From positions 32,001 through 96,000 of IMG/VR virus record IMGVR_UViG_3300047160_027173: a stretch of 64,000 nucleotides of DNA. One strand, given 5' to 3'. The DNA comes from a virus. The notes beneath the pieces are model-generated. The model searched no databases. It saw only the letters and a list, made by a program, of their open reading frames with translations, and was not told the DNA's origin. Position numbers and translations under genes: made by a program. The stretch's first letter is position 1; each line of letters opens with the position of its first letter. Below, piece by piece: positions 25,350 to 51,759 of this stretch.

Positions 25350-25350
25350 C

Positions 25351-25953: not shown

Positions 25954-25992
25954 GTAGTTCGTGGACATTCTCATCCACTGATCGGAGACATC

Positions 25993-26463: not shown

Positions 26464-26472
26464 GGAACCCGC

Positions 26473-26894: not shown

Positions 26895-28875
26895 TGGTCT
26901 GGCTGTTCTTCGTCACGTTCTACCTGAAGGCAGACGGACTGCCCTGGTGGGGCTGGGTTCTCTTCGTGGGCTGCATCATCTACGACTGGCAGAAGGAACA
27001 CCGGGAGGCCAAGCAGGTCGATGAGCTGAGGGCAGAGATTCACTTCCTGCGAGAGATCGCCAAGAGCTATGAAGACCAGCGCAACAGTCAGGGTTGACGG
27101 CTTCGGCAACCTCTTCGTCTACCACCGCGAAGGCGTCTTCGAGGATGGCCGGGGGAAGTTCTACGACGACGGCCTCGTCCGGGACACAGTCTACCTCAGC
27201 GACCTGGAACCCTGCCCGCACCAGTACGTCCACGCCGACGGCGTCAGCTGGGTCTGCATCCGCTGCGATGACGTTACGAGGAACCCATGACCGAGACCGA
27301 GAAGGCCATCAAGAAGATCAGCCAGTACGCGACCAAGCACGGCCTGGACCTGCGTGAGTTTGCCGAGCGCGTAGGAGCCGCAGTCAGCATCTACACACCC
27401 CTGAGCGAGGCCTTGTGGAGCATCCGTCGCACGATGGAGAACGAGCGCTACGAGCGCAACATGAAGCTGGCTTGCCAGGCCCTGGCTCAGGTCGCGAAGG
27501 ATACGCCATGACCACTCCGACCCCGACGCCCGCGTGCGACTGCCATCAGAGCGGCGACCTAGCGCATGCCCGCGACTGCCCCGCCGCGCCGCCCGCTGAG
27601 GTGTGCGAGCCCGATTGTCCTTATATCCACCCCGCCGCGCCGCCCGCCCGTATCTGTGGCTGCTGTGGCGGTAGCAATGACGGACAGCCTGAGGCCTGTC
27701 ACTGGTGCGGTACCGTGTTGGGCCCCGCCGACGAGAACGTCCACAGCGAATGCTGCTCATGCTGCTTCGACCTGCGCGACGCTCGCCGCGAACGCGACGC
27801 GCTCCGGGCCGAGTCGGACGTGCTCGGCGGTCACATGGAATGCGCCAAGCTGGAGCAGGAGCGGCTCCGGCGCGACCTCGACGCGGCACGAGCGGAGGTG
27901 GAGCGGCTGCGCGCATATGACCTTCAGTGGGCCGAGGCGTTGCAGTCGGCCAACGAGGGGCGGAAACGCGCCGAGGCCGAGGTGGAGCGGCTGCAGGGCG
28001 ACGTTGGCGAGGAGTTCCTGCGCGCCGAACGCGCCGAGGCGAACGTGGTCCGGCTCGTCCGGGCCTTCTGCACCTGTGGCGGGACCTCAGTGCACCGGCA
28101 CGACTGTCCCATCACCATCGAACTCGACCGGGAGACGCCGTGAAGAAGTACATCGTCATGCTCTACGCCGGTTTCGAGGTAGAGGCCGAGAACATCGCCC
28201 AGGCCCGGAAGATGGCCAAGAAGCACATCCAGACCATCCCGCAGAGCAAAGGCGGTATCTGTGGCAGCTACCCAGTCAGCCACAAGGACCGGACCAGGCT
28301 CAAGTACTCGATTGAGAGGCAGTTCATGAACCTCGACGTCTGGAGGAAGTTCTAGTGGGTCACACGTTCAGAGAATCGCTCAAGGCCGAGCCAGGCCAGC
28401 GCATGGGCATCGTCCGCGACAGCCACTGGCTGCTCTGGGGCTACGGCTACGGCTTCATGATCGGAGCCCCGAACTGGCTGAAGCGATTCATCGTCATGAA
28501 CTGGAACCGGGTCACGTGTCGCATCTGGCGGCACTGGCAGTTCCAGGACGTCTGCGTCATGTGCTGCAAGAAGATGGAGCTGCCGTGAACGAGCGCGCCT
28601 ACCGGCAGCTGCTTGACCGGAACCGCGACCTGGAGGAGCTACTCAGGGCCTTCCGGAACACGACCGTGGCCGAGAAGTACTACCCGCGGGCATTCCTGGC
28701 CAAGGTTGATGCTGCCCTGGGTCCGGAGAAGACCTACGGCATCCTGGAGCTGACCCCGGAGATCCTGATCAGCCACGAGGACTGCCCGTTCTGCGAGGCC
28801 TACAAGAAGATCGCCGGGAAGTACCCGGACCTGGGCTGCCCGTCGGAGACCGACGAGAACCTCGGAGACGACTAG
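26894..28875 (+). CDS. Run of seven small translationally coupled hypothetical genes (26894-27097, 27069-27290, 27287-27511, 27508-28143, 28140-28355, 28355-28588, 28585-28875)
   Basis: Overlapping start/stop junctions. Several are Cys-rich or membrane-like. Confidence 0.6.
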
Positions 28876-29774
28876 TCCTCGGCGGGAGCCGCGGGCTTCT
28901 CAGCCTTGGGCTCGGGAGCGCTGGGCGCGTCCATGGGATCGACGACGGCGTCGATGGCGTGGATCTGCAGGGCTTCTTCGGGGCTGAGCCACCAGTCGTG
29001 GCCGTAGACCTTGGCGCGGTAGGCCTCCAGGGGCATCCCCAGACGGCTGCTGACCAAGGTATCGACCATGATATTCAGGCGGTGGATGAGAGCCATCTCG
29101 TCGTCGCCCTGGGCCTCGTTGCGGGCGTCGATGCCGTTGATCTGAACCTCGTGGAAGAGAATCAGCGTCGCCGGACCGACGGCGTAGCGCTCATCGCAGG
29201 CTGCTTCGAGGGTGATCGCGGCTGCGCTCGCGGCCATGATGTCGGCGTAACAAACCAGCGAAGCGCCGGTCTGCTTCTTGAGGTCGGCCATGGACTGGAG
29301 GAACTTCAGCATGGCGAAGCCCGAACCTCCGGGCGACGTGATCCTCACCAGAACCCGCTTGTGGTTCTTGGCGGCCTTCCAGGCCTGCTGAGTCCAGTCT
29401 TCGACGGAGCCCGACGAGAACTGGCTGTCCATGAGGACGTCGAACACCTTGCCCTTGTCCGGGGCGAAGCGCGGGGCCATCATCGGGGACGGAGCGGCCT
29501 CGACCTTGGGCTCAGCCTTCGGAGCAACAGGAGCCGGGGCAGGCGCCGGAGCTTCGGCCTTCGGGGCCGGCTTCGGGGCGTGCTTCTTGTGGGGGAGATG
29601 CTTCTTCACCCAGCCCTTGATGGCCTTGCCGTGGACGAGCCAGGTGTGCCAGCCGGCGAAGCTCAGAGCGCCGAGGCTGAGTCCGAGTAGAACCAGCAGC
29701 GCCCACTTGCGGAGTTGCTTCCAGGAGGGGGACTTCTTCGGGGCGGCGGGCTTCTTCTCGGGGCGATCAGCCAT
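28872..29774 (-). CDS. ClpP-like (crotonase-fold) serine protease with N-terminal membrane anchor
   Basis: 'ITSPGGS', catalytic 'AASAAA', 'LFHE', 'WWLSPEEAL..HAID'. Hydrophobic segment plus Pro/Ala/Lys linker at the N-terminus. Confidence 0.85.
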   Translation of the reverse strand: MADRPEKKPAAPKKSPSWKQLRKWALLVLLGLSLGALSFAGWHTWLVHGKAIKGWVKKHLPHKKHAPKPAPKAEAPAPAPAPVAPKAEPKVEAAPSPMMAPRFAPDKGKVFDVLMDSQFSSGSVEDWTQQAWKAAKNHKRVLVRITSPGGSGFAMLKFLQSMADLKKQTGASLVCYADIMAASAAAITLEAACDERYAVGPATLILFHEVQINGIDARNEAQGDDEMALIHRLNIMVDTLVSSRLGMPLEAYRAKVYGHDWWLSPEEALQIHAIDAVVDPMDAPSAPEPKAEKPAAPAED

Positions 29775-29973
29775 GTCGTCTATCCTCTAAGGGTTGCCTC
29801 CCCTCGGGACGATGACACGCTTGATCTGTACCCAACAGACGCCCATGCAGCCTCCACGAAGGGCTGACTCAGACGTAGGTTAAGTCAGGAGTCGATTCTG
29901 CCCAAGAACCAGCGAGCGATGAGCATCACCACGAGCTGGACGGCGGCGAGGACGATGATGGCCTTGAGGAGCA

Positions 29974-30422
29974 TCACTTGGACCCCCGGACTTCCTGGAC
30001 GATGCGCAGCCAGTTGCGGCTGGCGTCGCGCTGCTGACGGGCGAGCTTCAGCTCGGCGACGAGGACGCGGATGAGCTTGACGTGGAAGCTGACGAGCTTG
30101 CCACTGCGGGCCCAGTCCACGAGGTACTCCTCGGCGGCCTCAACGGGGTCTTGAGTCGGTTGGTCGGTCATCATGGCCTTCTCTACTCCTCGCCGTTGCG
30201 GATTGCTTCCAGCTCCCGGTACATGCGGCGGATGGTGTCCTGGTGCAGGGCCAGCTTCTCGCGAAGCTCGGCGTTCTCCGCGACGACCTTGTCGTAGAGG
30301 GCCTGCAGCTGGGCCTTGATCATGTTCTGCTCGATCTTGGCGTGGAGCTTCCTGAGGTCGATGTTGCCGACCTTGGTCATGGCCTGGGCGACGGCCTTGT
30401 CGAACTTCCCCAGCGTGGTCAT
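29974..30422 (-). CDS. Two small hypothetical genes (29974-30174, 30183-30422)
   Basis: RBS-like motifs and coiled-coil character. Confidence 0.6.
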
Positions 30423-30841
30423 GGCATTTCTCCGGTGAGGATGTAGTGGGTGGCGTTCAGGCTCCCGTAGAACCAGAGCCAGTAGGGGACGAACATCAGG
30501 TTGAAGATCATCGGCGCCTCTTGAGGCCGAGGATGTGCAGAAGGAGCAGGCCGACGGCGAGCATCACCAGGGCCTTGGTCGGGAGCAGGGCCAGGATGAA
30601 GAGGCCGATGATGGCGAGGAGGAGGCCGCCCCAGGCGTCGGAGTTCACTGGTGCCTCCAGCTCTCGTCGATGCCGGTCAGGGGGAGCTTCTCGTCGGCGT
30701 CGGGAATCTCGATGGGGGCGTAGCTGCGGACGGGCTTCGGCTTCGGCCGTGAGGTCACGACCGGCACCGGCTTGGGCTTCGGACGGAACAGCCAGGAGAA
30801 GAGGCTCATGGACCCCCTCTAACGGCTAGAGTTCGGAAATG

Positions 30842-31864: not shown

Positions 31865-32398
31865 CTAGATTGCGGAGCTGCCGCCGACTACGTCGAGGAA
31901 CTGTGTGTCAACTCCGTTAAGACAGTTCAGGGCTCGGGTGTAGTACTTGCGGCGGACGTCGAGACTGGCCTGTGTGGCGCCCTGTCCGTTGATCTTGCGG
32001 GTGGCACCGTCGCAGTCGTTGGCGTCGGCGAAGGCGTTGAGGTTGAACTTCATCCAGAACCAGGTGCAGACGGCGGCGTTCTTCTGGATGGCCTCCTCGG
32101 GATGGTTCACGAGGTCGATGCCGATGGCGTCACCGCAGGCCTTGTAGTTGTACTTCCAGGTCAGCTGAATCCACGACCGACCGTAGTAGGGCACGTAGGC
32201 CTTGCCGGTCCAGGACATGGGGTCCTCTTCGAGGGCGCGAAAGTAGTCGGACTCGACGCCGAGCTGGGCGACGATGAGGGCCACGCGCTGCTTGCTGTCG
32301 GCCTTGCAGGAGATGAGAATCGCGTTCAGGTCCGCGATGGCGAGACCGGCTTGCGACGCAGGGCAGATGGCCTGTAGCTGGTCAGCTGTCAGCTGCAC
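31865..32398 (-). CDS. Endolysin, glycoside hydrolase family 19
   Basis: 'AQLGVES..F...EE', 'YYGRSWIQLTWKYNY', 'TRKING'. Confidence 0.85.
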   Translation of the reverse strand: MQLTADQLQAICPASQAGLAIADLNAILISCKADSKQRVALIVAQLGVESDYFRALEEDPMSWTGKAYVPYYGRSWIQLTWKYNYKACGDAIGIDLVNHPEEAIQKNAAVCTWFWMKFNLNAFADANDCDGATRKINGQGATQASLDVRRKYYTRALNCLNGVDTQFLDVVGGSSAI

Positions 32399-32798
32399 CG
32401 GGACCGCCAGGCGGGAGCTTGTCGTCTACGCGGTCGTTGAGCTTGCCGAGAATCCCCTTCAGGAAGTCCTGGCCGCTGATGCGGGACAGATTCTCGTAGA
32501 TGGACTTCAACTCGGTGATGCCGACGTAGCCGGCGGCGATCTTCGCGAACGGCAGCATGTCGTCAACGAGGTAGCGCTCGGTCAGGAAACCGCAGATGAT
32601 GGCCAGCTGGTAGACGAAGATCTTCGTCACGGTGCGGCCCAAGCGGTTGCTGCTGATGGGGATGCCAGTCTTCAGACTGGCCCAGATCCCCGTCAGGAGA
32701 TCCATGAACACGAGCACACCGGCTGTCACCAACATGGCCTTGATCGGCGCCAGTACGGCAAACGTCGAAAGGAGTAGCAACCAGAGGGCGGATTTCAT
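32382..32798 (-). CDS. Holin (phage holin 4-type)
   Basis: Transmembrane segments, 'DLLTGIWAS', 'ELKSIYENL'. Adjacent to the endolysin. Start reassigned to MKSALW. Confidence 0.8.
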   Translation of the reverse strand: MKSALWLLLLSTFAVLAPIKAMLVTAGVLVFMDLLTGIWASLKTGIPISSNRLGRTVTKIFVYQLAIICGFLTERYLVDDMLPFAKIAAGYVGITELKSIYENLSRISGQDFLKGILGKLNDRVDDKLPPGGPGAADS

Positions 32799-32856
32799 CT
32801 TCGCAGGCACTTTCGGGGCAGAGGGTAGAGGTGTCCTCAGACAGGCCGTAGATTGC

Positions 32857-33213
32857 ATGTCCGATGCCATCGGATTAGATGATTCTCAACCTGTGACCTT
32901 TGAAGAGTTCTCGGCCCTGTCCCCGGCCCAGCAGCGGGACCTGATGATCGCTGACGGCGTCGTCTGCCGATTCGACGACCCCAACCACTTCGACATCGAG
33001 GCCTGCCCCAGCTGCAAGGAGAGCAAGGAACTGCGATGCCTGCACCTCTACGGGGCTCAAGACAAGCTCATCTACGTGGGTACCATGGGTGGCAACAATC
33101 AGATGCTGTACTGGCTCGGCAAGTCTCCCCACAACAAGAGTGGAAGCTGGGTCCGGGGCAAGAACCCAGACCGTTGGGGTCGGCGAGGCTGGCTCGGTCC
33201 GACCTCGCGCTAG
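32857..33213 (+). CDS. Hypothetical protein
   Basis: MSDAIGLDD... with a CxxC motif. Convergent with 33210..33566. Confidence 0.5.
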   Translation: MSDAIGLDDSQPVTFEEFSALSPAQQRDLMIADGVVCRFDDPNHFDIEACPSCKESKELRCLHLYGAQDKLIYVGTMGGNNQMLYWLGKSPHNKSGSWVRGKNPDRWGRRGWLGPTSR

Positions 33214-34121: not shown

Positions 34122-36659
34122 TTACTGTCCCGTGGCCGTCTGCTGAACCGGAGCGACGACGAAGCTGATGTCGATGAAGTACAGGGCCGTGGCGAGCTTG
34201 ATCTGCAGGCTCACGAACATGGCCGGGGCAGCGATCTTGATGACAACGTTCCGGAAGCCGCGGGGAGCGTCGTCGCTGGGGGCGATGAGCTTCAGCCGGA
34301 GGAAGTTCGCCATGATGTTCTCGATGGCGGACTCTGCGACCTTGGCGTTGATGTCAGCCAGGCTCTGGCCGACGAACTGAGCGTTCATCTGCTGGGCGGT
34401 GGTCACGCTGACCACGTCCGCGGCGTAGACGGCCTGGATGCTGTTGAAGACGAAGTTGTTGTCCTTGCCGTAGGTGGTCTGGTCCGAAACCCAGGTGAAG
34501 CCACCGCCGGCAGCGGGCTGAGCCGGGAGCAGACCGGCCTGGAGGGCCTGGGTGATCTGGTCGCGGTTGCGGGGGTTGTAGCTACCGTCGGCCATCAGGA
34601 CGCCGCTGGTGTTGATCTGCTTGTTGACGATGGCCTTGTAGAAGCCCGCGGCCTGCATACCGGCGGCGAGAGCAGCGCCCATCCAGGACGGGAACTGGAC
34701 CAGGTTGCCCTGGCTGTCGGTCTGCTTCATGTCGAGGAAGCAGAGGCTGGCGCGGAAGCTGGCGAGGTCGGCAGCAGCGGCCTGAGCCAGGGCGAAGCTG
34801 GTGTCCTTGGAGAGGAAGCTCTGACGGTTGCGGCCGAACTTGGTCTCGGACATCAGCAGGACGTGGTTCAGGGTGGCGGTGTTGATGCTGTCGATGGTGT
34901 AGGTCGAGCTGGGGTCGGTGACGCCGTTGGCGATGTCCTGGCTGGCGTCGCGGCTGAAGGCCGGGACGACGAAGTTCAGCTGGGCGCTCTGCAGGGCGTC
35001 GAGAGCAGCCTGGACCTGGGCGTTGCTGGTGCCACCCTTGCTGCCGCCGGTCAGGAAGGAAGGACCGCTGGTGACGTCGGGGAGACCGGCATCGGCGCGG
35101 GCCGCGGGGCTGTTCTCCTGGAGGAGGACCGACTGCTGGCTGATGACGTTGAAGAGGTCGGAGGCGTCAACCTTGACGCGGAGGGCGCCGACACCCCACT
35201 GGGTGCTGGCGTTGGCGGCGCTGACGCGGTCCAGGTCGGCGCTGGGGCGCTGGCCGAGGACGGCGGTACCGACGCTGGCCACGTAGTTGGGCTGGGCGTT
35301 GATGAACGAGGCCAGGGCGGCCACGGTCGGGAAGTCCGAGAAGTTGATGGTGAGGCTGTCGGCCGAAACCGAGGCCGTGGTCACCAGCTGGGTAGCGCTG
35401 ATGGTCACCGTGCAGCTGGTGCCCTTGTAGCCCATCTTCAGGGCGACGCGGCCACCGGCAACCAGGCTTTCGCTGGTGGCGGTCGACTGGCGGTTGACGT
35501 TGAGCTTGATCTGGTACTCGGCGCCGCTGACGAGCTGGGCCGGGGCACCGGTGAGGCTGACCCAGCTGACCTGGGTGTTGGTGCCGAGGAGGTAGGCGGT
35601 GCGGATGAGCTGGTCGCCACCGGTACCGAGGTCGGCGATCTCCAGGCTCTTGCCGACGCCGTCGATGACGCTGGCCGAGGTGAGGCTGATGCTGACCGGC
35701 GACCAGGCCTTGGCGTCGGTCAGGGCGGCGATGGGAGTAGCGGCCACAGCGCGGGGGGCGGTGACGGTGCCAGCGACGGGGCTGTTCGTGCTGCCGGCAT
35801 CGCTGAGCTTGATGGCGGTCAGGGTCGAGGTCGAGACGGCGGTGATGACGTAGGCGCCGACGTTGCAGTCAGCGTGGACGCCGTCGTCCTGGAGGACGGA
35901 GCCGTGGGGGATGGTCAGGGTGTCGCCGATGACGGGGCTGGCGGCCCAGGCAACGGAACGGGTCACGGTCACGGTGCGGCTGGTGCCGGGGACGCCGACA
36001 ATGGCCAGAGCCAGAGTGCCGGACACGGCGAGGATGACGCGGTCAACGCCACCGACGGCGGTGATTCCGGAGAGGGCGCCGACCAGGCCCTGGAAGCTGG
36101 CCGGGGTCATGTTGGCGGTGACCGTGAAGGTCTCGCTGGCGCCACCGTTCACGCGGAGGGCGGCGTTCACGCCACCGACGGGCGGGATGTACGTGAAGGC
36201 GCTGGTCGTCGGGACGACTTCGGCGACGTTGGACAGGGTCTGCCAGTAGATCTGGTTGCCGAGGGCGCCCTGGCTCTTGTCGAGGATGGTGGCGTAGGTG
36301 CCGCCGCCGATCTTCGGCAGGGCGCCAGAGGCCTTGCCGCTGACGTTGGTCTTGACGATGATGATGGCCTGAGGAGCGCCGGTGATGCCGGGATCCTTCG
36401 AGGGAGCGCACATGGCGCGGAAACCGTCCACGAGGGGGCCGCTGCCGTACTTGGCAGCAACAGAGGCGAAGCTGTCCGGACCGAAAGCGTTCAGCTGGAG
36501 GTCCTGCTCCAGGGTGAAGTCGGGGCCCTGGTTGGACTCACCGATGAGGGCGATGACGCCGGTGGTGGCCAGGCCTGAGGGCGTGGTCTGCACCGTGTAC
36601 CTGGAGTATGCTCCAGGGATAGTAACGGTTCCGTCGACAGTTGCGAGACTCTGGGCCAT
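34122..36659 (-). CDS. Tail sheath protein
   Basis: 'IPGAYS...GVIALIGESNQGP', 'FLTGGSKG', and a C-terminal sheath domain. Confidence 0.9.
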   Translation of the reverse strand: MAQSLATVDGTVTIPGAYSRYTVQTTPSGLATTGVIALIGESNQGPDFTLEQDLQLNAFGPDSFASVAAKYGSGPLVDGFRAMCAPSKDPGITGAPQAIIIVKTNVSGKASGALPKIGGGTYATILDKSQGALGNQIYWQTLSNVAEVVPTTSAFTYIPPVGGVNAALRVNGGASETFTVTANMTPASFQGLVGALSGITAVGGVDRVILAVSGTLALAIVGVPGTSRTVTVTRSVAWAASPVIGDTLTIPHGSVLQDDGVHADCNVGAYVITAVSTSTLTAIKLSDAGSTNSPVAGTVTAPRAVAATPIAALTDAKAWSPVSISLTSASVIDGVGKSLEIADLGTGGDQLIRTAYLLGTNTQVSWVSLTGAPAQLVSGAEYQIKLNVNRQSTATSESLVAGGRVALKMGYKGTSCTVTISATQLVTTASVSADSLTINFSDFPTVAALASFINAQPNYVASVGTAVLGQRPSADLDRVSAANASTQWGVGALRVKVDASDLFNVISQQSVLLQENSPAARADAGLPDVTSGPSFLTGGSKGGTSNAQVQAALDALQSAQLNFVVPAFSRDASQDIANGVTDPSSTYTIDSINTATLNHVLLMSETKFGRNRQSFLSKDTSFALAQAAAADLASFRASLCFLDMKQTDSQGNLVQFPSWMGAALAAGMQAAGFYKAIVNKQINTSGVLMADGSYNPRNRDQITQALQAGLLPAQPAAGGGFTWVSDQTTYGKDNNFVFNSIQAVYAADVVSVTTAQQMNAQFVGQSLADINAKVAESAIENIMANFLRLKLIAPSDDAPRGFRNVVIKIAAPAMFVSLQIKLATALYFIDISFVVAPVQQTATGQ

Positions 36660-36690: not shown

Positions 36691-39600
36691 TCACTTGCCC
36701 TGGAGCTTCCCGAAGATGCCCGGCTTCTTCGGTGCGGGGGCGGCGGCGGGCTTGTTGGCCAGCGGGCCCGGGCGGGCACTGAGCTGGGGGCGCTGGCTGG
36801 GCAGCGGGTTGGAAGCCATCGGGGTGGAGGGCGGCTTGATCTGGGACTGGACCTTGGCGGCGGTCGCGTCCATGTGGGGCTTGACCATGCCACCGGTCAG
36901 GGCTGCACCGGCACCGAGCATGGCACCGGCGACCTTGCCCTTCCAGTTCTTCTCCAGGTCACCCTTGGCCACGGGGGGCTTCGGGGCCTGGACCAGCTTG
37001 GCCTTGGCGTCCTTCAGGTCCTGCATGGTGAACTTCTTCTTGGGCTTGGAAGCCTCTTCGCTGCGCTCCGGGAGACCTTCACCGGCCCAGGTGTCGAGGC
37101 CACCGGCCTTCTTCACGGGGGCGGCGTCTTCGAGAGCCGAGTTCTCACCGCTGTCCTTCTTGGAGGCAGCGTCCGAGGCCAGGGCGTCGTTCTTGCCGCT
37201 GTCCTTCTTGCTGGGGGCGTCACTCATGAGGGCGTCGTTCTTGCCGGAGTCCTTCTTCGAGGCAGGGGCGGCGTCCAGGCCCTTGTTGTCGGCGGGGACC
37301 TTGTCGGGGGCGGCGTTCTCCAGGGCCGAGTTCTCACCCGAGTCCTTCTTGGACGGGGCGTCGGTCATGAGGGCGTCGTTCTCGGACTTCTTGGCGGCGA
37401 GCTTCTTACCGGCCTCGACGCGGTGCTCGACCTTGGCCTTGGTGGCGTCCATGTGGGGCTTGACGGCGCCAGCCGTCAGGGCGACGCCAGCAGCCAGGGC
37501 ACCGGCAGCGACCTTGTCCTTCCAGCCCTTCTCCATCGGCAGCTGGGGACCAGCAGGCGGGCGGAGATGCGAGCCCGGGAGCTTGATGTGGGACTCGACG
37601 CGCTTGGCGGCGTGATGAGCCTGGGCGGGGATGGCACCGGCAGTCATGGCCGTACCAGCGGCCAGAGCAGCGGCGGCGACCTTCTCCTTCCAGCCCTTCT
37701 CGACGGCTTCACCCTTCATGGCCATGCCCGTGCTGGCAGTGCCAGGGGCAGCACCCATCTTCGGGGGCTTGGCCATGGCCGGGGCCGGCATGCCGCCCAT
37801 ACCCTTGGCAACGCCGGAGACACTGGTCTCCATGGGGCTGGCCTCGGGCTTGGCGGGCTTCTTCATCCAGTCCTTGGTCTCGGCGCTGGCGGGCTTCTTG
37901 ACGCCGTCAGCCAGTGACTTGGCGTAGGTCTTGTCGTTGGCACCCTCGCCGCGCTTGCTGTAGGTCTTGTCGCCGTTGGCACGGCCAGGACCGGGGGCAT
38001 CCTTGCCCTCGCCACGCTTCGAGTAGGTCTTGTCGGCGTCGGACGGACCGCTGTCGGCCTTGTAGGGATCATTGCTGCCCTTGTCAGAGAACTGACGGGC
38101 GCTGGCGTCGTCGGCCTTCTGGCCGGGGTTGCGCTTGAGCTTGGCACCGGGCAGCACCGCGCCACCGGAGCCGTTGGACTCTTCGTCGCGGAACTTCTGG
38201 CCGTTGCCGACGGGCTTCTCGGGAACGCCCTTGCTACGGGTCTTGCCGCTGGCCTTCGGGGGGAGGACCGCGTCGGGGTCGACGCCGTTCTCCACGAGGT
38301 GTCCCTGGTTGTCCACGAACTCTTCGGCCTTCTCCAGGGCCTTCTTCATCTTGTTGTGGATCTTCCAGGCGGTGGCGTAGGCCTTTTCCTTGTCGCCGCC
38401 GTACTGGGCCTTGAGCTTGTGCATCGTCTTCTCAGACACGCCCGGAGGAGTTACCTTCTCCAGCATGTCCTGATGCTCGTCGCTAGCTGACTTCTCGCCC
38501 TCGGGCTTGGAGTCGCTGACGGTCTGAGCCTGGGGGGATTCCCGGGGCTCGTCCTTCTTCACGGGCTTGGCCTTGCCACTGTGGGCAGAGCAGAAGTCCT
38601 TGTCACCCCTGATGCCCTTGCCGCAGGCCGGGTAGTTGCAGACGTGGGTCGGGCCACCGCCCTTCGCCATCTCGTCCTTGGCCTCGCAGCCCTTCTCCAG
38701 GTCGTGGGCCTTGCCACACTTCTTGCACAGAGCTTCGGCCTTGACGGCCATGTCAGCAGCGGGCACGTCCTCGGCGCCACCGCTCGCGGAAGACGCGGGC
38801 TTGTGGGCGTGGACAGGGATCAGAGACTTGGCAAGCTCGCGCTTGCGGAGACCATCGATCTCCTTCGCGAACGCATCGATCTTCTCACGAGTAGCCTTCA
38901 GAAGAATGTCCCGAGCTTCCTCGGGCGTGTAGAGCTTCTCGTTCTTGGCGTCGGCCATGGATACCTGTCCTCGGACGTATGTGTAGATTGCGTCCAGTTC
39001 CTGCACTTCAGCCTTGGCGACCGGGCTAGGTACGGGCTTGGACTTTAGGGTTTCGTGGGGCTTCAGACCCATGCGGGCAGCGTGTCCGCTGACCAGGGCC
39101 AGGGAGGTCGTCAGGGGCACCTGGCCGTTGTGGGGCTGGAAGCCTTCCTTGACGGGGTCCGTGAACTTACCGGTGACGGCGCGGTGGGCGGCGTCGTGCA
39201 TGACGGTGTTGTACTCACGGTTGAAGTCGTCATCGCTGATGTGCACGCCGAGCTTGGCGCTCAGCTCCCGCTGCTTGTGAGCGGCGAGGTGCTCCCAGTG
39301 GACGGCGCGCAGGGCCTCGTTGGGGGTGCGGTGCTGGCCGAGCTTGCCGATGCGGCGACCCTCGCCGTAGAGGCGGTTAACCTCGGGGTAGGTCAGCGCA
39401 TGTGCTAGTTCGTGAACTTTCCGCCAGTTGTCGGTGTACTCGCGCTCGCCGAAGTCACCACCCGTGCCCGGGTCCGGGTCGTAGATCATCAGGTGCTTGG
39501 TGTTGTAGTTGCGGTTGGCCAGGTCGGGCTTGCCGTACTTGCCACCGGCGTAGTAGTGGCTGTAGCCGTGCTGCTGGAGGAGGTCGTTGATGGCCTGGCC

Positions 39601-40347
39601 GTGGCCCCCATAGTTGTAGAACTTGAGATTCTGGCTGCCGGGCTTTCCAATGCCACCATAGTGCTGGGCGAACTCGCCGTAGGTGCTGACGCCTGCCGGC
39701 GCGAACTGCTCGTTGGCCTTGTTCAGGCTCCGGTCGAGCTTCATGCCCTCGCCGACGGGCATGTTCTGCGGGCCCTGCTCGACGACGGTGCTGCCCTGGT
39801 TGGCGGGACCGCGCGGGGTCGGGAAGCCGGCCGCATCAGGCGGGAGCTTCTCCATCTGCGTGGCCTTCTTGACGGGCTCCTCGGTCTCGACGCGCTTGTG
39901 GTGCTCGGTGTTGCCGTCGTGCCAGCTGTAGGCGTTCGGGTGAGGGGTGCCGCCTTCAAGGTTCAGCCGGAAGAAGCCCTGGCCGGGGATCTCCGTGTAG
40001 AAGTCCTCGGGGGCCTCGGAGAAGACCTCGTGGCCGTGGCCGGTCTGGTGCTGGCCGCGCTTGGGGCCGTTGGTGAAGAGGAGCTTGTTCTGGTGGCCGA
40101 TGCTGTGGATGACCGATTCCTGGCCGTAACGCTCGCCGAGGTCGCGGAGATTCTCCTCGCTGATGCCGGGCAGGAAGAAGCTGCGCTCGGGCTCGCCGTA
40201 CTTGCCGTTGACGACCTGGAAGGGAATCTGACGCCTGGTCAGCTCCCGATGCAGGCCCTCGTGGCCACCGTTGGCCGTGGCCCTGAACAGGGGTCGGTCA
40301 CCGGACATGAGGCCGAAGGCTTGGCCGCTGAGGATGGCGTGTTTCAT
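36691..40347 (-). CDS. Polyvalent virion (internal head) protein: SAM-lyase-like domain, HExxH domain, low-complexity repeats
   Basis: See findings. About 20 hydrophobic-x-K-[AGSD] motifs. Located in the structural operon. Confidence 0.75.
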   Translation of the reverse strand: MKHAILSGQAFGLMSGDRPLFRATANGGHEGLHRELTRRQIPFQVVNGKYGEPERSFFLPGISEENLRDLGERYGQESVIHSIGHQNKLLFTNGPKRGQHQTGHGHEVFSEAPEDFYTEIPGQGFFRLNLEGGTPHPNAYSWHDGNTEHHKRVETEEPVKKATQMEKLPPDAAGFPTPRGPANQGSTVVEQGPQNMPVGEGMKLDRSLNKANEQFAPAGVSTYGEFAQHYGGIGKPGSQNLKFYNYGGHGQAINDLLQQHGYSHYYAGGKYGKPDLANRNYNTKHLMIYDPDPGTGGDFGEREYTDNWRKVHELAHALTYPEVNRLYGEGRRIGKLGQHRTPNEALRAVHWEHLAAHKQRELSAKLGVHISDDDFNREYNTVMHDAAHRAVTGKFTDPVKEGFQPHNGQVPLTTSLALVSGHAARMGLKPHETLKSKPVPSPVAKAEVQELDAIYTYVRGQVSMADAKNEKLYTPEEARDILLKATREKIDAFAKEIDGLRKRELAKSLIPVHAHKPASSASGGAEDVPAADMAVKAEALCKKCGKAHDLEKGCEAKDEMAKGGGPTHVCNYPACGKGIRGDKDFCSAHSGKAKPVKKDEPRESPQAQTVSDSKPEGEKSASDEHQDMLEKVTPPGVSEKTMHKLKAQYGGDKEKAYATAWKIHNKMKKALEKAEEFVDNQGHLVENGVDPDAVLPPKASGKTRSKGVPEKPVGNGQKFRDEESNGSGGAVLPGAKLKRNPGQKADDASARQFSDKGSNDPYKADSGPSDADKTYSKRGEGKDAPGPGRANGDKTYSKRGEGANDKTYAKSLADGVKKPASAETKDWMKKPAKPEASPMETSVSGVAKGMGGMPAPAMAKPPKMGAAPGTASTGMAMKGEAVEKGWKEKVAAAALAAGTAMTAGAIPAQAHHAAKRVESHIKLPGSHLRPPAGPQLPMEKGWKDKVAAGALAAGVALTAGAVKPHMDATKAKVEHRVEAGKKLAAKKSENDALMTDAPSKKDSGENSALENAAPDKVPADNKGLDAAPASKKDSGKNDALMSDAPSKKDSGKNDALASDAASKKDSGENSALEDAAPVKKAGGLDTWAGEGLPERSEEASKPKKKFTMQDLKDAKAKLVQAPKPPVAKGDLEKNWKGKVAGAMLGAGAALTGGMVKPHMDATAAKVQSQIKPPSTPMASNPLPSQRPQLSARPGPLANKPAAAPAPKKPGIFGKLQGK
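37125..37390 (-). repeat. Imperfect coding repeats (SKKDSG[EK]N[SD]AL x4)
   Basis: Read directly in protein and DNA. Confidence 0.85.
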
Positions 40348-40350
40348 GGC

Positions 40351-42978
40351 TTAGGTCAGAGCGAACGGGCCCACGAAGACGGTCTCGGTTCCGGCCGAGG
40401 TCCAGACAGTCTGCGGGATGGCGTTGAGGGCGGTGTCGGCCATCGTGAACCGGAACGAGGTCGTGAACGGCGTCGTGCACTGGCACAGGTACCAGCCGCT
40501 GCCGAGAGAGGTGATGGCGCCGACGGCACCGCCAGCGGTGGCGGCGACCGTGCCCAGGCTGAGGTCGAAGATGGCGTAGGCGCCGTCGTTGCTCTGGTCC
40601 CAGATGGTGATGAAGTTGACCGTGCCCGCCTTGTAGGCACCGCTGCCCTGGCTGCCGGTGCCGAGGAGGGTGTTCGAGTACGCCGAGTGGACGTCCGTGA
40701 CCGCGGCCAACGTGACCGTGCAGGCAGCGAAGAACTGTCCCGTCCAGCTGGAGACGTCTTGAGCCGCGCTCAGGTTCTGGAACACGGACCAGTGCGTGAA
40801 CAGGGCGGCGTCGCCAGAGTTGAGGAACACGTTGGTCGGGATGGGATTACCGCGAGCCTCCACGTAGTAGGAGATGAGGTAGTTCGTCAGGCCCGCTCCG
40901 AGCCAGCTGCTCTCAGGCGGCGTGTGACCGAGGATATCCGCGCCCTGGATGGCCCAGTTCGAGCCGAAGTGGAGCGCGGTCGGAACCGTCATCTCGAAGA
41001 AGTAGAAGCCGTTGCCGGCCGTGTTGACCGTGGACGTGGCCGCGCCGAAGTTCGTGTTGATGCCGGTCTGGAGATCGAGGACGGAGTAGTCGGCCAGGAC
41101 GGTGTTGTTGTACAGGGTTACGTAGCGGACGCCGGGACCCTGCTTGAAGAAGCCACCGACTTTGGTCGTGCCCAGGGGCAACTGACCATTGCTCCAGGTC
41201 CGGTGACCGCTGTTGGATGGCTGCAGCTGCAGGCTCCAGGCCGCGTTGGCGTTGCCGTCCTGGTCCTGCTGGTCCTGCGCCGGGAACACGCCCAGGTTCA
41301 GCCAGCCAGTGAAGTCGACGCCGCCCGCGGGCGGGTTGAAGTGGCCAGAGGTGACGTCGAAGCTGACGTTGAAGGTCTGCGGGCTGTTGGTGACACCCGA
41401 GGCGAAGACGCTGACGACGGCGTTGTACGTGGCCACGGTCAAGGAGCCAGTCACGGGCTGAGCGGTGATGAGCTGGGAGTTGCCGCTACCGGACTGAGTC
41501 AGGCCGAGCCAGCCGCTGCCCTGGAGGTAGTTGATGCTGGTCGTGACCGTGGGCAGGATACCGCCACCGGTGTTGGAGACGGTCTCGTCCTGGCTGGCCG
41601 GGTTGGCGCCACCAGCCGTGGCCGTGAAGCTGAGGTCGCCTGGGCTCAGGGCGAGCACGGGAGCCACGGAGACCGTGAAGCCGACGTCAACGACCTGAGG
41701 GGTGTTCGAGGCGCCAGGGCTGTTGATGCTGACCTGAGCCGAGTACGAACCCGCGGCCAATGAGCCCGTGCTGGGCGCGACCTGCAGCGAGAAGGCGTCA
41801 CCGCCACCGACGATGGTCGCGTCCAGCCAGCCCGTGGCGCCGGTGCCGTAGGTGACGAGGACGAAAGGCGAGGCCAGGCTACCGCCACCGCTGTTGAAGA
41901 CGGCCAGGGTCTGGAGGGCGGGATCGCTGCCGCCCTCGATGGCACTGAAGGACAGCGACGAGCCCGACGGGAACATGGTCGGGCGACGGGCGCTGGCGGC
42001 TGCACCGGCCGCGGCCGAGGGAGACTGGACCGTGCCCCAGTTCTGGTCAAACTCAAGATCGGTGAGATTCGAGATGACCTTGACGTCGGGCTCCACGACG
42101 AGGATCTTCTGCGTGAAGGCCTTGGGCCAGTACTGGCGGACCTTGCCGGTGATGGTGATGTACCGGCTGAAGAAGGACTCGGTGTCGACGATGGGGTTGC
42201 GGCTGAAGTCCGAGCTGGAGAAGACGCTCTGCTCGAAGCCGCGGTGCTCCAGGAGGTCCTGCTTGTAGCGGAGCAGGATGAAGCAGACGATGCTGTGCAG
42301 CCAGGTCAGGTAGGTGGGCTCGGCGGCGCAGTGCACGCCGATCTGGTAGACCTCGTTGTAGAGCACGGACTCCAGGAAGTTGATGCCCGTCGGGGGCACG
42401 CCGCGGACGACCATGCCCTGGAGGTTGCCTACCGCGCCCGGGCGAATCTGGATGGTGTCGGCGCCGGCAGTGCCGACGACGGGGATGCGGGTGCCGTCCC
42501 GGAGGAGGACGAGCATGTCCGAGACGATGATGAAGGAGCCGATAGTGCCCTGGGGCCAGGTGATGATGCCTGTCGCGGGGTCGTAGCCGATGGGGTCAAC
42601 AGGGCCCAAGAGGTTGGGCCAGGTAAGGTCGTTCTCTTCCTGGGGAATGTAGTGGGTGTCGCCGGTCGTGACTTCGGTCTCGGAGCTGCTGACGAGCTTG
42701 ATGCTGATGGTGAACGGCTTGGGCTCGTTCGAGACCGGGACCATGCGGACGCTGATCTGGTTGTTCTGGAACCACTTCCGGGCCTGGGCGATGTCGCGCT
42801 CGCCGTACTTGGCCCGGGTCAGGTCGTCCTGGGCCTCGCTGGCGAAGACGTAGTCCAGCAGCCAGGGATTCCTGCGCAGGTCTGCGATCCCCTCCTCAAG
42901 GGCGGAGCGGATGATGATGTCGCTCTGAAAGATGCCCTGAGCTTCGGTGGTCCGGACCGGGACCTGGTAGTCAGCCAT
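40351..42978 (-). CDS. Neck/tail-completion protein fused to BACON/Ig-like and carbohydrate-binding-like domains
   Basis: Start reassigned to MADYQVP (late motif 6 nt upstream). Two 'LSF.A..GG..PA.Q...V.N.GGG.L...GWL' repeats. Confidence 0.65.
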   Translation of the reverse strand: MADYQVPVRTTEAQGIFQSDIIIRSALEEGIADLRRNPWLLDYVFASEAQDDLTRAKYGERDIAQARKWFQNNQISVRMVPVSNEPKPFTISIKLVSSSETEVTTGDTHYIPQEENDLTWPNLLGPVDPIGYDPATGIITWPQGTIGSFIIVSDMLVLLRDGTRIPVVGTAGADTIQIRPGAVGNLQGMVVRGVPPTGINFLESVLYNEVYQIGVHCAAEPTYLTWLHSIVCFILLRYKQDLLEHRGFEQSVFSSSDFSRNPIVDTESFFSRYITITGKVRQYWPKAFTQKILVVEPDVKVISNLTDLEFDQNWGTVQSPSAAAGAAASARRPTMFPSGSSLSFSAIEGGSDPALQTLAVFNSGGGSLASPFVLVTYGTGATGWLDATIVGGGDAFSLQVAPSTGSLAAGSYSAQVSINSPGASNTPQVVDVGFTVSVAPVLALSPGDLSFTATAGGANPASQDETVSNTGGGILPTVTTSINYLQGSGWLGLTQSGSGNSQLITAQPVTGSLTVATYNAVVSVFASGVTNSPQTFNVSFDVTSGHFNPPAGGVDFTGWLNLGVFPAQDQQDQDGNANAAWSLQLQPSNSGHRTWSNGQLPLGTTKVGGFFKQGPGVRYVTLYNNTVLADYSVLDLQTGINTNFGAATSTVNTAGNGFYFFEMTVPTALHFGSNWAIQGADILGHTPPESSWLGAGLTNYLISYYVEARGNPIPTNVFLNSGDAALFTHWSVFQNLSAAQDVSSWTGQFFAACTVTLAAVTDVHSAYSNTLLGTGSQGSGAYKAGTVNFITIWDQSNDGAYAIFDLSLGTVAATAGGAVGAITSLGSGWYLCQCTTPFTTSFRFTMADTALNAIPQTVWTSAGTETVFVGPFALT

Positions 42979-43003
42979 GGCCCCTAGATTGACGGGTGAA
43001 GAT

Positions 43004-43190
43004 TCGTACGCCGGACGTATCTCACGCCGGTGGCGACGACCTGGTGGGGTGCGGCCTGGGGTGCGACCCCAGGGCCCGTTCCAGGTTGGCTCCCGATCCC
43101 GAGGCGGCTGCAGCAACCTCTTTCACACCGGCTCTAGGCCGGCGGCACGTACGAGTTGCCTAGGTTAACGGCGACGGTTGCGTCCGGCAA
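43004..43190 (-). ncRNA. Unidentified highly structured RNA at the distal end of the tRNA array
   Basis: At least six complementary stems including crossing pairs, and no credible ORF. Strand is assumed from the array. Confidence 0.5.
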
Positions 43191-48279: not shown

Positions 48280-49097
48280 AGGCTCTTGGTCACGGAAACA
48301 ATGAACTTGTCTTTGATCTTCTCTTCCCACTGCTTCAGCGCCCACACCGCGGCCTCGTCGAGGAACTTCTTCGCTTCCAGGCCCGGATGGACCCAGCGCC
48401 CGCTGCCCTTCATCTTCGAAGAGGCCGTTCGGAATGTTACCACAGACCTCCGCATCTTCTCCTCGCCGTTCTTATCCTTGTAGGGCTTCTGGTAGACGCG
48501 GACGCCGGCCAGGAAGGGGACGCCGGTCGGGCCCTGGCGGGGAGCGCCGATGGGCCCATGCCCCTGGCCAGGACCGCTCCCGTCCTTCAACGGAGCCGTG
48601 AGAATGTCAAAGCTGTGAATGAGGCCCTGCTTGGGCTGGCCGGCGGCATCACTCTCTAGCCCGCCCCAGGGGATGCCGCGGTCCTTCATCTCCTGCTTGA
48701 TGGTGGAGGTCAGGTCTCGCTGGGCCTGGGTCTGTTGGGTGGGGCCCTTCTTGTGCTCGAAGGGCACAGCCAGGTACTTGCTGCCGTCCGCGGCGGTCTT
48801 CGTCGACTTGGACTTCAGGAGGTCGTCGATCATCTCGTGCTCGTCCATGCCTTCCTCGATCCACATGGCGTCGGGGTCGAGAATGATGGACCAGGTATCG
48901 GCGTCCACCTGTTCCACGTGCAGCGCCTCCAGATACTTCTCGCGGCTACTGTGGAGCTTGGCCTGGACCTCTTCGATGATGTGGGCCTCGGTCTGGATGA
49001 CGAGATCCTGCAGGGCCTTCTTGCTCTCGGTCGCAGCAACATCTTCCAGGTCCTTGAGGGACAGGAGGTCGCCGATGTCAAGGTTGAGGTAGATCAC
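48276..49097 (-). CDS. Probable neck/virion morphogenesis protein
   Basis: 'WIEEG...MIDDLL...YLAVPF.H', 'VTFRTAS....WVHPG'. Structural operon context. Confidence 0.6.
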   Translation of the reverse strand: MIYLNLDIGDLLSLKDLEDVAATESKKALQDLVIQTEAHIIEEVQAKLHSSREKYLEALHVEQVDADTWSIILDPDAMWIEEGMDEHEMIDDLLKSKSTKTAADGSKYLAVPFEHKKGPTQQTQAQRDLTSTIKQEMKDRGIPWGGLESDAAGQPKQGLIHSFDILTAPLKDGSGPGQGHGPIGAPRQGPTGVPFLAGVRVYQKPYKDKNGEEKMRRSVVTFRTASSKMKGSGRWVHPGLEAKKFLDEAAVWALKQWEEKIKDKFIVSVTKSL

Positions 49098-51595
49098 TGT
49101 TGGGGCAGGTCGCCGTCCGAGTAGTGCTCGGGCTGCGCTTCGGGCTTGTCCTTGGGCAGGCCACCTGGATGCTTGGCGCTGGTCGGGCGGCCAGTCGGGC
49201 TCGGGACGACACCGGAGCGCATGGCCTGCCAGCTGCTGTGACCGTCGGCGTGGGCTACCTTCCTCTTGCCGCCCTCACGGGCTCCGCTGGGGCTGGTGTC
49301 CTTCTGGCTGCCGTCGGGGAGGATGACGTTGTGCCTGCCGGTCTTGCCGGCCTCGGTGGCGGCCTTCTCCAGCTCCGAGCCGGGCTTGATGCCCTGCTTG
49401 GTCGGATCCAGGTCGGTGCCGTCGTGCAGCCGAATCCACTGATGGCTCTCGCCCTTTGGGGTCTCGCCAACGACGGCCTCATGGGGAATGCGGTGGTGAC
49501 GAAGGGTATCGCTGAGCAGCTCGGCGGCATCGTCACAGAAAAGGAACTCGCCACGACCGATGTGCCCGGCAATCTCACCCTCGTGCGCACCGATAAGGTC
49601 GCTCATTTCCTGGGGAGACTTCGCACCGCGGAGCTTCTTGGCGATGTGCCCGGGGATGTGAGCTAGCCTGAGACCGCGGGGCTTCGACTCAGCCTTCTCG
49701 ACCATGTCGGGCTCGGCCGCGGCCAGCTTCTGCGGCAGCTGGACGTCGAGCAGGCGACCGGCCATGTCGGCGGCGCCAGCCGGGTGGCTCTGGTGCGGCG
49801 TCACGAGGAGTTCGGTCTGGGCACCGGAGTTGCGGCCAAACCCAACCGAATGACTGGGGTCGAGCAGGTCGAACGAGGTGCGGACACTCTTAGTCGGCAC
49901 CCAGCTGATGTACGGGCGCATGCCCTTGCCAATGGGGCTGTCGCCCTTCGGATAGAGCTTGTGAGAGTAGCTGGCGAGCGCCTGGTCCGGAACGCGCTTC
50001 ATCCCCAGCACGCCCTTGTCGTCCAGGTACCGGGCCAGTGGCACGTGGGGCTCGCCGTTGATCATCTTCGACTTGGGCAACAGCGCCTTCTGGACCTGCA
50101 GATAGTGCTGATGGGCCTCATCGACGAGGTGGGAGTTCTTCACCAGCGAGGACGCCAGTTCGGCCACGTTCGGGATCTCGTGCTTGCTCGCGGCCAGACC
50201 GGCGGCGTGCTTGAGTCCGGCCATGAACCTCTGGTCCGCGTGCTGCGGATCGCTGTTGTACGAGGCCATGTTCTCCATGCGATGGTGGAGGTAACGGAGC
50301 AGCTGGGCCTTCGGCGTGTGCGCGTTCTTCTTGTAGCTGTTGTGGAGGTCCTTCAGGTCGTGGACTGCCTTGCCGGCCCGATGACCTTCCACAGCCAGCT
50401 GGAAGGCCAGTTCATCTTTTGGGCTTGGAGGGCCCTCGCTCTTGGCGAGGCCAGCCTCGGCGAGCAGTCCCTGGATGGCCTTTGAATCAAGGCCCTCCGC
50501 CTCCAGACGCTTGACGGTGTTCGCCATGGCGATGGCGGCCTGCTCGGGACGGTCCTGCTTGAACTTCGCGATGGCGCGAAGGGTATTCTTCGCGTGCGCG
50601 AGGTCCTCTTCGGGGGTCGTCGGGCGGGTACCGTGCTCCAGCGTGTCCGTCTCGTCAGGCGGAGTGCTGTTGCGGTTGTGGTCGGTGGCGATGAAGCGGC
50701 CCTGCTCGTCGCGGGGATGAGTCTTGGGGTCGAAGATGTCGGCCTTCTGCAGGCCCTTGCTCATGCCCTCGACCTCGGCGGGCTCGCCTTCCTCGGGGTC
50801 CTGGGGGGCGGCCCAGAGCGTGCGGCCCATGGCGATCATCGTCTGGGCCATCTGATTGACGGCCTCGGCAATCTCCGGGTTCTGCTGCTGGAGCAGGGCC
50901 AGGGTCTGGGGGTTGCCCTTGAGCTGCTGGAGGATGGCGGCGATCTTCATCTTCAGGGCGTCGTTGGCGGCGTCCTGAGCGTGGGCCTCGGCGTCGGCCT
51001 TCTGCTTGTCGGCGGCGGCGTGGAAGTCCTTGAGGAAGTCAGCGGGCTGCTTCTCTTCCTTGGCGCCTTCCTCACCGTGGCCGCCTTCCATGTGCTGCAT
51101 GAGCTGCTGCATGTGGGGGTCGTCGACGGTGCCCTGGATGGCCTCTGGAGTCTCCTCGGCGCGGGCCAGGTACTCGTGGCCGAGCTTCTCCTGCTCGTCC
51201 TGCTGGAGCTGGAGGTTCTGGATGGTGTTCTCGACGTGGGGGCCGTAGGTGACGATGCGGTCTTTCCCTTCGAGTTTGGCCACGAGCAGGGCCTTCTGGG
51301 CCTCGCTGAGGCGCATGCCCAAGCCGACGCTGGCGCTGGCGCCCACCAGGGCGTGGTACTGCTGGCGGAGGGTGGGGACCTCGCCGATGCGGCTGGCGTC
51401 GACCTGGACGACGACCTCGTCGCCGCCGGCACTGACGACCTGGCCACCGACACCCAGGGCCCACTTGGTCCAGAGGTCGTTGCCGTCGGTGATGAGCTTG
51501 CTCAGGCGGCGGACCTCGGCCACGTCATCGGCGAGGCTGGCCCGACCGACCTGGGACCCGATGCTGTCGCCGTCGATGCTGACGAAGAGATCCAT
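49094..51595 (-). CDS. Polyvalent virion protein: mCpol-like cyclase/polymerase palm domain, ART-like domain, papain-like domain
   Basis: Start reassigned to MDLFVSIDGD (late motif 9 nt upstream). See findings. Confidence 0.75.
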   Translation of the reverse strand: MDLFVSIDGDSIGSQVGRASLADDVAEVRRLSKLITDGNDLWTKWALGVGGQVVSAGGDEVVVQVDASRIGEVPTLRQQYHALVGASASVGLGMRLSEAQKALLVAKLEGKDRIVTYGPHVENTIQNLQLQQDEQEKLGHEYLARAEETPEAIQGTVDDPHMQQLMQHMEGGHGEEGAKEEKQPADFLKDFHAAADKQKADAEAHAQDAANDALKMKIAAILQQLKGNPQTLALLQQQNPEIAEAVNQMAQTMIAMGRTLWAAPQDPEEGEPAEVEGMSKGLQKADIFDPKTHPRDEQGRFIATDHNRNSTPPDETDTLEHGTRPTTPEEDLAHAKNTLRAIAKFKQDRPEQAAIAMANTVKRLEAEGLDSKAIQGLLAEAGLAKSEGPPSPKDELAFQLAVEGHRAGKAVHDLKDLHNSYKKNAHTPKAQLLRYLHHRMENMASYNSDPQHADQRFMAGLKHAAGLAASKHEIPNVAELASSLVKNSHLVDEAHQHYLQVQKALLPKSKMINGEPHVPLARYLDDKGVLGMKRVPDQALASYSHKLYPKGDSPIGKGMRPYISWVPTKSVRTSFDLLDPSHSVGFGRNSGAQTELLVTPHQSHPAGAADMAGRLLDVQLPQKLAAAEPDMVEKAESKPRGLRLAHIPGHIAKKLRGAKSPQEMSDLIGAHEGEIAGHIGRGEFLFCDDAAELLSDTLRHHRIPHEAVVGETPKGESHQWIRLHDGTDLDPTKQGIKPGSELEKAATEAGKTGRHNVILPDGSQKDTSPSGAREGGKRKVAHADGHSSWQAMRSGVVPSPTGRPTSAKHPGGLPKDKPEAQPEHYSDGDLPQQ

Positions 51596-51759
51596 GCACG
51601 GGCCTAGATTGCCGGATAGAGGAGGTTGCTGGCCGGAAGTCGAGGGCAGAGGTGGTGACTGGGTTGCCGTCCTAAAAGTGGGTCCAATGAGACCCCTCTC
51701 CGGGGCGAGCGGCGCCGGGCTTAAACTGAAGCGGCCACCTCTGCCTACATCTTCGGTGC

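Follow-up and report, generated by a model that had tools for sequence, protein, structure and literature searches.

Results

A SAM-lyase-like domain at the head of a long phage protein

We analysed a window of 64,000 nucleotides (nt) that spans positions 32,001 to 96,000 of the virus record IMGVR_UViG_3300047160_027173. The record is 130,239 nt long, is an estimated 80% complete, has a G+C content of ~65% and carries 34 tRNA genes; its source is a soil phage related to Myxococcus phage Mx1. Within the window, a minus-strand open reading frame (ORF; 36691–40347) encodes a protein of 1,218 amino acids (aa). A preliminary description made from the sequence had reported that the N-terminal 130 residues of this protein (39958–40347) resemble S-adenosylmethionine (SAM) lyases and are fused to a ‘head polyprotein’ next to the tail sheath gene. 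Known SAM lyases are small proteins that T3-like phages make early and that blunt both type I restriction and bacteriophage exclusion (BREX). All four motif strings quoted in that description are present in aa 1–130 of the ORF. They are listed here together with the other features of the locus, in window coordinates.

39943–40347, minus strand: SAM-lyase-like domain, aa 1–135 (AlphaFold2 fold, Pfam and motif alignment)
40291–40317, minus strand: motif string FGLMSGDRP, aa 11–19
40171–40212, minus strand: motif string VNGKYGEPERSFFL, aa 46–59
40105–40140, minus strand: motif string LGERYGQESVIH, aa 70–81
39994–40002, minus strand: motif string FYT, aa 116–118
39766–39942, minus strand: linker, aa 136–194 (His-rich motif in the consensus of alignments A2 and A3)
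38938–39765, minus strand: HExxH domain, aa 195–470 (conserved; probably a zincin-like metallopeptidase)
38617–38727, minus strand: Cys cluster, aa 541–590 (from the translation)
36691–38616, minus strand: A/K/G/P-rich low-complexity C-terminal part (composition and hydropathy)
34122–36659, minus strand: tail sheath gene, directly downstream after a 31-nt spacer (phrog_279)
40351–43116, minus strand: 921-aa gene, upstream, with weak head-spike-fibre similarity (NF048003)

The N-terminal domain is predicted to fold like the SAM lyase of T3

An AlphaFold2 model of aa 1–160, computed from a 30-sequence alignment, reached a mean predicted local distance difference test (pLDDT) score of 89 and a predicted template-modelling (pTM) score of 0.81, and DSSP assigned nine strands and two main helices to it. 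Among 48,161 representative chains of the PDB, the top match was the SAM lyase of phage T3 (7ock_L; Z 10.5, root-mean-square deviation 3.5, 121 of 152 residues aligned). The SAM lyase Svi3-3 ranked second (6zm9_A; Z 5.6), and the remaining chains, generic ferredoxin-like folds, scored 4.7 or less. A Foldseek search of the full PDB likewise returned T3 SAM lyase first (8bb1_E; E 5.1e-4, template-modelling scores 0.54/0.58), with Svi3-3 at ranks 2 and 4. The comparison with T3 and Svi3-3 that the preliminary description had proposed as a check thus placed the T3 enzyme ahead of Svi3-3 and, with the aligned motif residues described below, upheld the assignment of a SAM-lyase-like domain to this position. 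Among predicted viral structures, the domain matched annotated SAM hydrolases of Vibrio and Pectobacterium phages, as well as an ART-PolyVal protein and a ‘structural protein’ of a Flavobacterium phage.

The model displays the ferredoxin-like/PII-type fold of SAM lyases in its T3-type form, namely a nine-stranded single-chain barrel flanked by two outer helices. On the strength of this model, aa 1 to ~135 are predicted to be a T3-type, single-chain β-barrel SAM lyase domain.

Residues of the SAM-binding site are retained

The putative substrate-binding residues of the domain are G48, Y50, E54, S56, Q76, E77 and S78. In a MAFFT L-INS-i alignment of the family with 15 T3-clade sequences, G48/Y50 fall opposite G55/Y57 of T3, E54-R-S56 opposite E68-K-T70, and Q76-E77-S78-V79 opposite Q94-D95-C96-V97. 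The ligand contacts of Svi3-3 (G56, Y58, E69, S71, Q104 and E105) have counterparts in the same order. In the excerpted text of the Svi3-3 study, G56, E69 and Q104 are strictly conserved, Y58 stacks on the sulfonium, S71 touches the ribose and E105 adjoins Q104 (PMC7877911); a T3 preprint, likewise in excerpt, reports an E68Q/Q94A double mutant of the T3 enzyme to be inactive. The domain therefore keeps the residues that hold the ribose, sulfonium and homoserine moieties of SAM.

G48, Y50, E54 and Q76 are invariant in the family alignment A1. All four are kept together in 144 of 150 representatives (singly, Q in 150, G in 149, Y and E in 147 each), a count that omits relative P0003, which stemmed from another search, and one of 151 scanned proteins that lacked coverage of the core. 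Among 57 distinct domains on viral contigs, two partial domains of one locus (L066) being set aside, the exact set was present in 37.

A large family close to DUF3293

An exhaustive phmmer search retrieved 624 cluster representatives (50% identity clusters) at E ≤ 1e-3, 212 of them at E ≤ 1e-10, and tblastn against Mx1 gave an E-value of 6e-21. The best Pfam match of the domain is DUF3293 (PF11697), a family without assigned function; the match spans ~73 positions, between helix 1 and the QES motif. At E ≤ 0.01, 29 of 30 short relatives matched DUF3293 and 19 of 30 matched PF23780 (best E 4.7e-9), the latter being the T3 family, as all 45 of the T3 SAMase relatives listed carry it. Of the long relatives, 32 of 43 matched DUF3293. 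Individual members were clearer still: P0003 exceeded the PF23780 cut-off with 35 bits, and the DUF3293 domains of loci L042, L045 and L056 scored 50–59 bits. The resemblance to SAM lyases is thus well beyond chance.

Other searches were negative. Neither single-sequence nor profile searches of PDB sequences produced a real match for the N-terminal or the middle domain, NCBIfam gave none for either domain, and a word-indexed search found no relatives of similar length.

A probable metallopeptidase and a low-complexity tail follow the domain

The fusion to a large protein, as originally described, was borne out by the 1,218-aa ORF. Between its two conserved domains, aa 136–151 (39895–39942) form the motif HPxAYxWHDxxTxHH, which recurs in the relatives’ consensus; its Y, W and H columns are almost invariant in alignment A3, and pLDDT falls below 50 for aa 141–147. 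This His-rich motif could bind a metal, or serve as a cleavage or docking site.

The middle domain carries HELAH at aa 312–316 (39400–39414) and recurs at E < 1e-40 in 61 of the 153 proteins collected, with invariant H118, E119, H122, E150 and E158 (numbering of the first row of A3). Its AlphaFold2 model (pLDDT 86) comprises a three-stranded sheet (strands 37–39, 69–73 and 91–95), a preceding helix (56–65), the HExxH helix (108–133) and a second long helix (148–171). For the zincin-like MPTase domain of polyvalent proteins, the sections of PMC5512222 drawn on here describe a three-stranded sheet, an N-terminal helix, the HExxH helix and a Glu helix. We consider the middle domain to be probably a zincin-like metallopeptidase. 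The fold matches were weak (Foldseek and VIA-align; ArdC, 6sna_A, Z 4.6; PprI/IrrE, 8sln_A, Z 3.9), and an Atlas lead pointed to Peptidase_M78 (score 0.88). No Pfam peptidase, MPTase-PolyVal or LPD family matched the 1,218-aa protein. A named peptidase family was not assigned, the fold matches being too weak.

Within the same domain, aa 247–275 (39523–39609; GGH..L..L..G....GGKYGKPD) weakly repeat two elements of the SAM-lyase-like domain, its helix 1 and its GKYG strand (conditional E 0.013), without the Q-E-S motif; a query with the middle domain also aligned to the N-terminal domain in 28 relatives. To judge by these alignments, the segment may stem from an old internal duplication.

Downstream lies a Cys cluster, made up of CKKCGK...C and CNYPACGK...C..H, whose CxxCG pattern is part of the A3 consensus. 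It matched no family and is possibly a zinc ribbon. The C-terminal part is rich in A (17.8%), K (14.4%), G (10.8%) and P (9.7%). It includes four SKKDSG[EK]N[DS]AL repeats and three hydrophobic, G/A-rich segments that follow KGWKEKV, KGWKDKV and KNWKGKV (aa 884, 940 and 1133), with hydropathy peaks at aa 888–892, 944–948 and 1137–1139. Close to the end, aa 1208–1215 (36703–36726) read KPGIFGKL. The pattern PGIFG[KR][LM] recurs in 13 of 29 distinct Mx1-like loci (L005–L029), 4–114 residues from the C-terminus and embedded in tails that are very divergent between loci; within the 130-kb record it is confined to this one ORF. The motif may serve as a signal for docking or targeting. Neither paralogs of the 1,218-aa protein nor further copies of its C-terminal motifs were found in the record.

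The gene sits among virion genes

Synteny between the record and Mx1 extends over the stretch from major capsid protein to tail tube. The adjacency to the tail sheath gene noted in the preliminary description holds: the downstream gene matched phrog_279 (E 2.1e-28), its product is 42–45% identical to the annotated tail sheath of Mx1, and a tube-like gene follows. On the upstream side, 3 nt separate the stop of the 921-aa gene from the ATG with which the 1,218-aa gene starts. The N-terminal part of the 921-aa protein matches an Mx1 hypothetical protein encoded at the same position, and its C-terminal part resembles NF048003 GTA_spike_fiber (E 8.7e-5, below the cut-off).

To place this arrangement in a wider frame, we refer to a scan of viral contigs that found 70 loci with a SAM-lyase-like domain. 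In 34 of them, the order is a homolog of the 921-aa gene, the SAM-lyase-like gene and the sheath gene, an order also present in Mx1, whose homolog WNM70344.1 has the domain at aa 263–400. The upstream homolog is directly adjacent in all 34 loci but L026, where it lies ~3 kb away; a homolog of the tube gene follows the sheath in 31 of the 34, and in the other three, where none was found, the available sequence stops inside the sheath gene or a little beyond it. The domain is N-terminal throughout these 34 loci, in ORFs of 199–1,317 aa. It forms a separate gene of ~200 aa at the same position in L026, L033–L035 and L041, and in L030, L031, L032 and L037 the ORF ends right after the HExxH domain (468–513 aa). 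Gene boundaries thus vary within the Mx1-like clade.

At the other loci, the domain resides inside ORFs of 1,158–3,513 aa or in small ORFs of 200–290 aa. One ORF of 3,238 aa combines LPD22, DUF3293 (58.7 bits) and ART-PolyVal, and among the 43 long relatives there were single or few fusions to NUDIX, PI3/PI4-kinase, GGDEF, mCpol, GNAT and ParB_N domains. In Mx1, the late block from capsid to sheath (L075; Mx1 13002–30710) encodes a 1,239-aa ‘prohead protease’, a 1,479-aa ‘NUDIX hydrolase’, a ‘kinase’ and a ‘nucleotide cyclase’. As a side observation, the Mx1-like late block, also at window positions 49094–51781 and at 97–104 kb of the genome, harbours several large enzyme-bearing proteins; domains of the same types are fused to the SAM-lyase-like domain in other relatives, and the whole looks like a modular effector cassette.

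With two domains of disparate activity in one ORF and a location among virion genes, the 1,218-aa protein has the architecture of a polyvalent protein: an enzyme domain, an HExxH domain and a low-complexity tail, encoded within a virion-gene block. The carrier fits this pattern better than the ‘head polyprotein’ of the preliminary description. In the sections of PMC5512222 drawn on here, the MPTase is a hub domain of polyvalent proteins, and packaging is predicted for those encoded among virion genes. The main text of that paper mentions neither a SAM-degrading domain nor DUF3293.

Some further results concern the surroundings of the gene. Megablast of the 9.2-kb region against phage records returned no match. 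A σ70 promoter scan found 0 sites and a terminator scan four terminator-like sites, none between the genes and fewer than in shuffled sequences, two outcomes that are uninformative for phage late promoters. None of three DNA methyltransferase families (PF01555, PF00145, PF02086) was matched in the record, which is weak evidence given that it is ~80% complete; the lack of a match would agree with a phage whose own DNA does not depend on SAM. A minus-strand ORF of 162 aa (32382–32870) that lies downstream of the tube gene showed a weak holin match (phrog_199, E 6.3e-5).

Discussion

A putative SAM lyase that may be delivered with the DNA

In our preferred reading, the domain is the T3-type SAM lyase module of a packaged polyvalent protein, a proposal that we regard as evenly poised between right and wrong; our confidence in the shared fold and the retained binding site is much higher. 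The domain would cleave SAM, or a SAM-derived molecule, to methylthioadenosine and homoserine lactone. The protein would be made late, loaded into the particle and delivered together with the DNA, so that the enzyme could act on SAM-dependent defences ahead of any phage gene expression; the HExxH domain may serve to release the SAM-lyase domain. Late synthesis, loading and delivery appear the most likely course because the gene abuts a virion-gene block consisting of the 921-aa gene, its own gene, and the sheath and tube genes. The ‘head polyprotein’, the packaging and the depletion of SAM at entry in the preliminary description are unproven inferences.

Several lines of evidence weigh against this proposal. 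By sequence, family membership of the domain is borderline: aa 1–160 scored 24.5 bits against DUF3293 (E 4.2e-5), the best Pfam match but 0.5 bit under its cut-off of 25, and 17.4 bits against PF23780 S-AdoMet_lyase (cut-off 28), with the whole protein reaching 21.5 and 12.7 bits, respectively. Profile–profile comparison by hhalign gave no signal between the domain family and the 15-sequence T3-clade alignment (probability 2.9%) and nothing against the T3 sequence itself, so that the residue mapping rests on one MAFFT alignment plus the fold match. Excerpts of the Svi3-3 paper describe similarity within the SAM lyase family as barely detectable (PMC7877911).

The site itself also departs from that of T3. 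The hairpin between Y50 and E54 counts 4 residues as opposed to 11 in T3, that is 7 fewer, and the site may therefore be more open or differ in specificity. The G-Y-E-Q set is altered in 20 of the 57 viral domains, mostly by exchange of Y for F, W or H, any of which would still permit a cation–π contact. Of the T3-type motifs listed in the preliminary description, G-x-Y, E and Q-E-S are aligned and conserved, but S-x-x-R did not stand as a family feature. In the 1,218-aa protein itself it matches S16 and R19 of T3 (alignment A4), and among 150 relatives 98 have S and 41 have T at position 15; at the position of R18, however, just 7 of the 150 have R. As far as these alignments tell, S-x-x-R does not define the domain’s family.

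Beyond the N-terminal domain, the HExxH domain had no significant fold or family match in Pfam or among PDB sequences, the ‘structural protein’ label of the Flavobacterium phage match is that of its record, and the Mx1 genome announcement reports no expression, proteomic or enzymatic data. Numbers of molecules are a further concern. The published turnover of Svi3-3 is 9.5 per second, and an excerpted account for T3 speaks of ~10,000 SAMase molecules per cell early in infection. Injected in small numbers, the enzyme would act slowly on the bulk SAM pool; this argues against a quick draining of the pool by a few copies and leaves room for late action in the producing cell or for a rarer, SAM-derived substrate.

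Alternative explanations

The first of these options holds that the enzyme is an active SAM lyase and remains unpackaged. Made late, it could work in the producing cell, for example by shutting off SAM-dependent defences or methylation, or the long protein could have a role outside the virion. Bulk SAM depletion takes many enzyme molecules, which late cytoplasmic expression would supply; packaging is, after all, inferred only, and the separate genes of ~200 aa in L026, L033–L035 and L041 mean that linkage to the long tail is not obligatory. On the other side, 34 of 70 loci keep the gene at its place between virion genes, the domain recurs in giant polyvalent-type ORFs alongside ART-PolyVal and LPD22, and polyvalent proteins are argued, in the cited sections of PMC5512222, to be injected. 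Nor did the ~80% complete record contain a DNA methyltransferase of the three families whose timing such a lyase would serve. We consider this explanation unlikely.

If the enzyme is delivered, its substrate could be a SAM-derived or related signal such as SAM-AMP. A few copies could then be enough to neutralise a signalling defence, and an enzyme that arrives in few copies is a better fit for a scarce signal than for a bulk cofactor. In the partial accounts on which we draw, the fold and the catalytic Glu recur in SAM-AMP lyases, and one such lyase, encoded by a phage and fused to an N-terminal domain, showed activity towards SAM-AMP but none towards SAM; the hairpin above the site, shorter here than in T3, points the same way. 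The T3 SAM lyase, however, matches the model far better (Z 10.5) than does the SAM-AMP lyase 9gab_D (Z 3.7), the residues that contact the region of the ribose 3′-OH, E54 and S56, are those of SAM enzymes, and we found no sign that the host uses SAM-AMP signalling. SAM-AMP as the substrate thus strikes us as quite unlikely.

Finally, the domain could be a non-catalytic relic, that is a ligand-binding or structural module such as a sensor of SAM or nucleosides that controls the HExxH domain, or a handle for packaging, as the scores under the Pfam cut-offs, the shortened hairpin and the degenerate partial copy in the HExxH domain (an example of the module losing its motifs) might suggest, yet this is improbable given that 144 of 150 representatives, although overall just 30–47% identical to the query, preserve G48, Y50, E54 and Q76, the very pattern predicted by selection on a working site.

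A possible branch of SAM lyases in packaged proteins

SAM lyases and polyvalent proteins are both known already; the novelty lies in finding the two combined and in placing a large, unannotated family close to DUF3293 within the SAM lyase fold. The literature that we searched contained no description of a SAM-lyase domain in polyvalent or packaged proteins, nor a mention of DUF3293.

These elements can be joined into a broader proposal, which we put forward tentatively and hold to be somewhat doubtful in its entirety. DUF3293-type domains would constitute a large, unrecognised branch of SAM lyases (624 representatives), which phages of several lineages, namely Mx1-like myoviruses and phages with virion-type ORFs of 2,300–3,500 aa, would package within polyvalent proteins. 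A pre-made lyase of SAM or of a SAM conjugate would enter with the DNA and disarm type I restriction–modification, BREX or SAM-AMP signalling before phage transcription, with the HExxH peptidase releasing the domain.

Should the lyase prove active and enter along with the DNA, a metabolite-destroying enzyme would join the injected counter-defence repertoire and DUF3293 would gain a function. Mx1, which can be grown on Myxococcus xanthus DK1050, would then offer a system in which to test the idea. A quantitative puzzle arises as well: can so small a number of delivered molecules affect a bulk cofactor, or is a rarer SAM-derived signal the target?

Comparison with known systems

The closest relative in structure is the T3 SAM lyase (gp0.3; 7OCK, 8BB1; PF23780), which has the same single-chain layout of nine strands and two helices as the domain and with which the motifs G-x-Y, E-x-S/T and Q-[ED]-[SC]-V align. 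The two differ in setting. The T3 enzyme is a stand-alone protein of 152 aa encoded by the first early gene, whereas here we find an N-terminal domain of a 1,218-aa protein within a virion-gene block, a contrast that the preliminary description had rightly drawn. They differ, too, in their surface: the residues through which the T3 enzyme contacts MetK (M1–N9, Q103, T104 and T106) have no counterpart in the domain, while eight of the nine residues M1–N9 as well as Q103 and T104 are invariant or nearly so in the T3 clade. A T3-like binding of MetK is accordingly unsupported, the contact residues not being conserved.

Svi3-3 (6ZM9, 6ZNB) is a trimer with its active sites between subunits, and excerpts of the T3–MetK structure paper set it against a monomeric T3 SAMase of nine strands and two helices. 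The model of the domain is much closer to the monomeric T3 barrel; we did not adopt a Svi3-3-like trimer with inter-subunit sites.

With polyvalent proteins (PMC5512222), the 1,218-aa protein shares the presence of several unrelated domains in one chain, an HExxH domain and a gene among virion genes. The anti-restriction or host-modifying proteins P1 DarB/DdrB and T4 Alt, as treated in the cited sections of the same paper, differ from it in that delivery has been shown for them and is predicted here, and we found no relation to them in sequence or fold; what would unite them with the phage protein described here is a shared logic, in which late genes provide a pre-made effector that is delivered along with the DNA.

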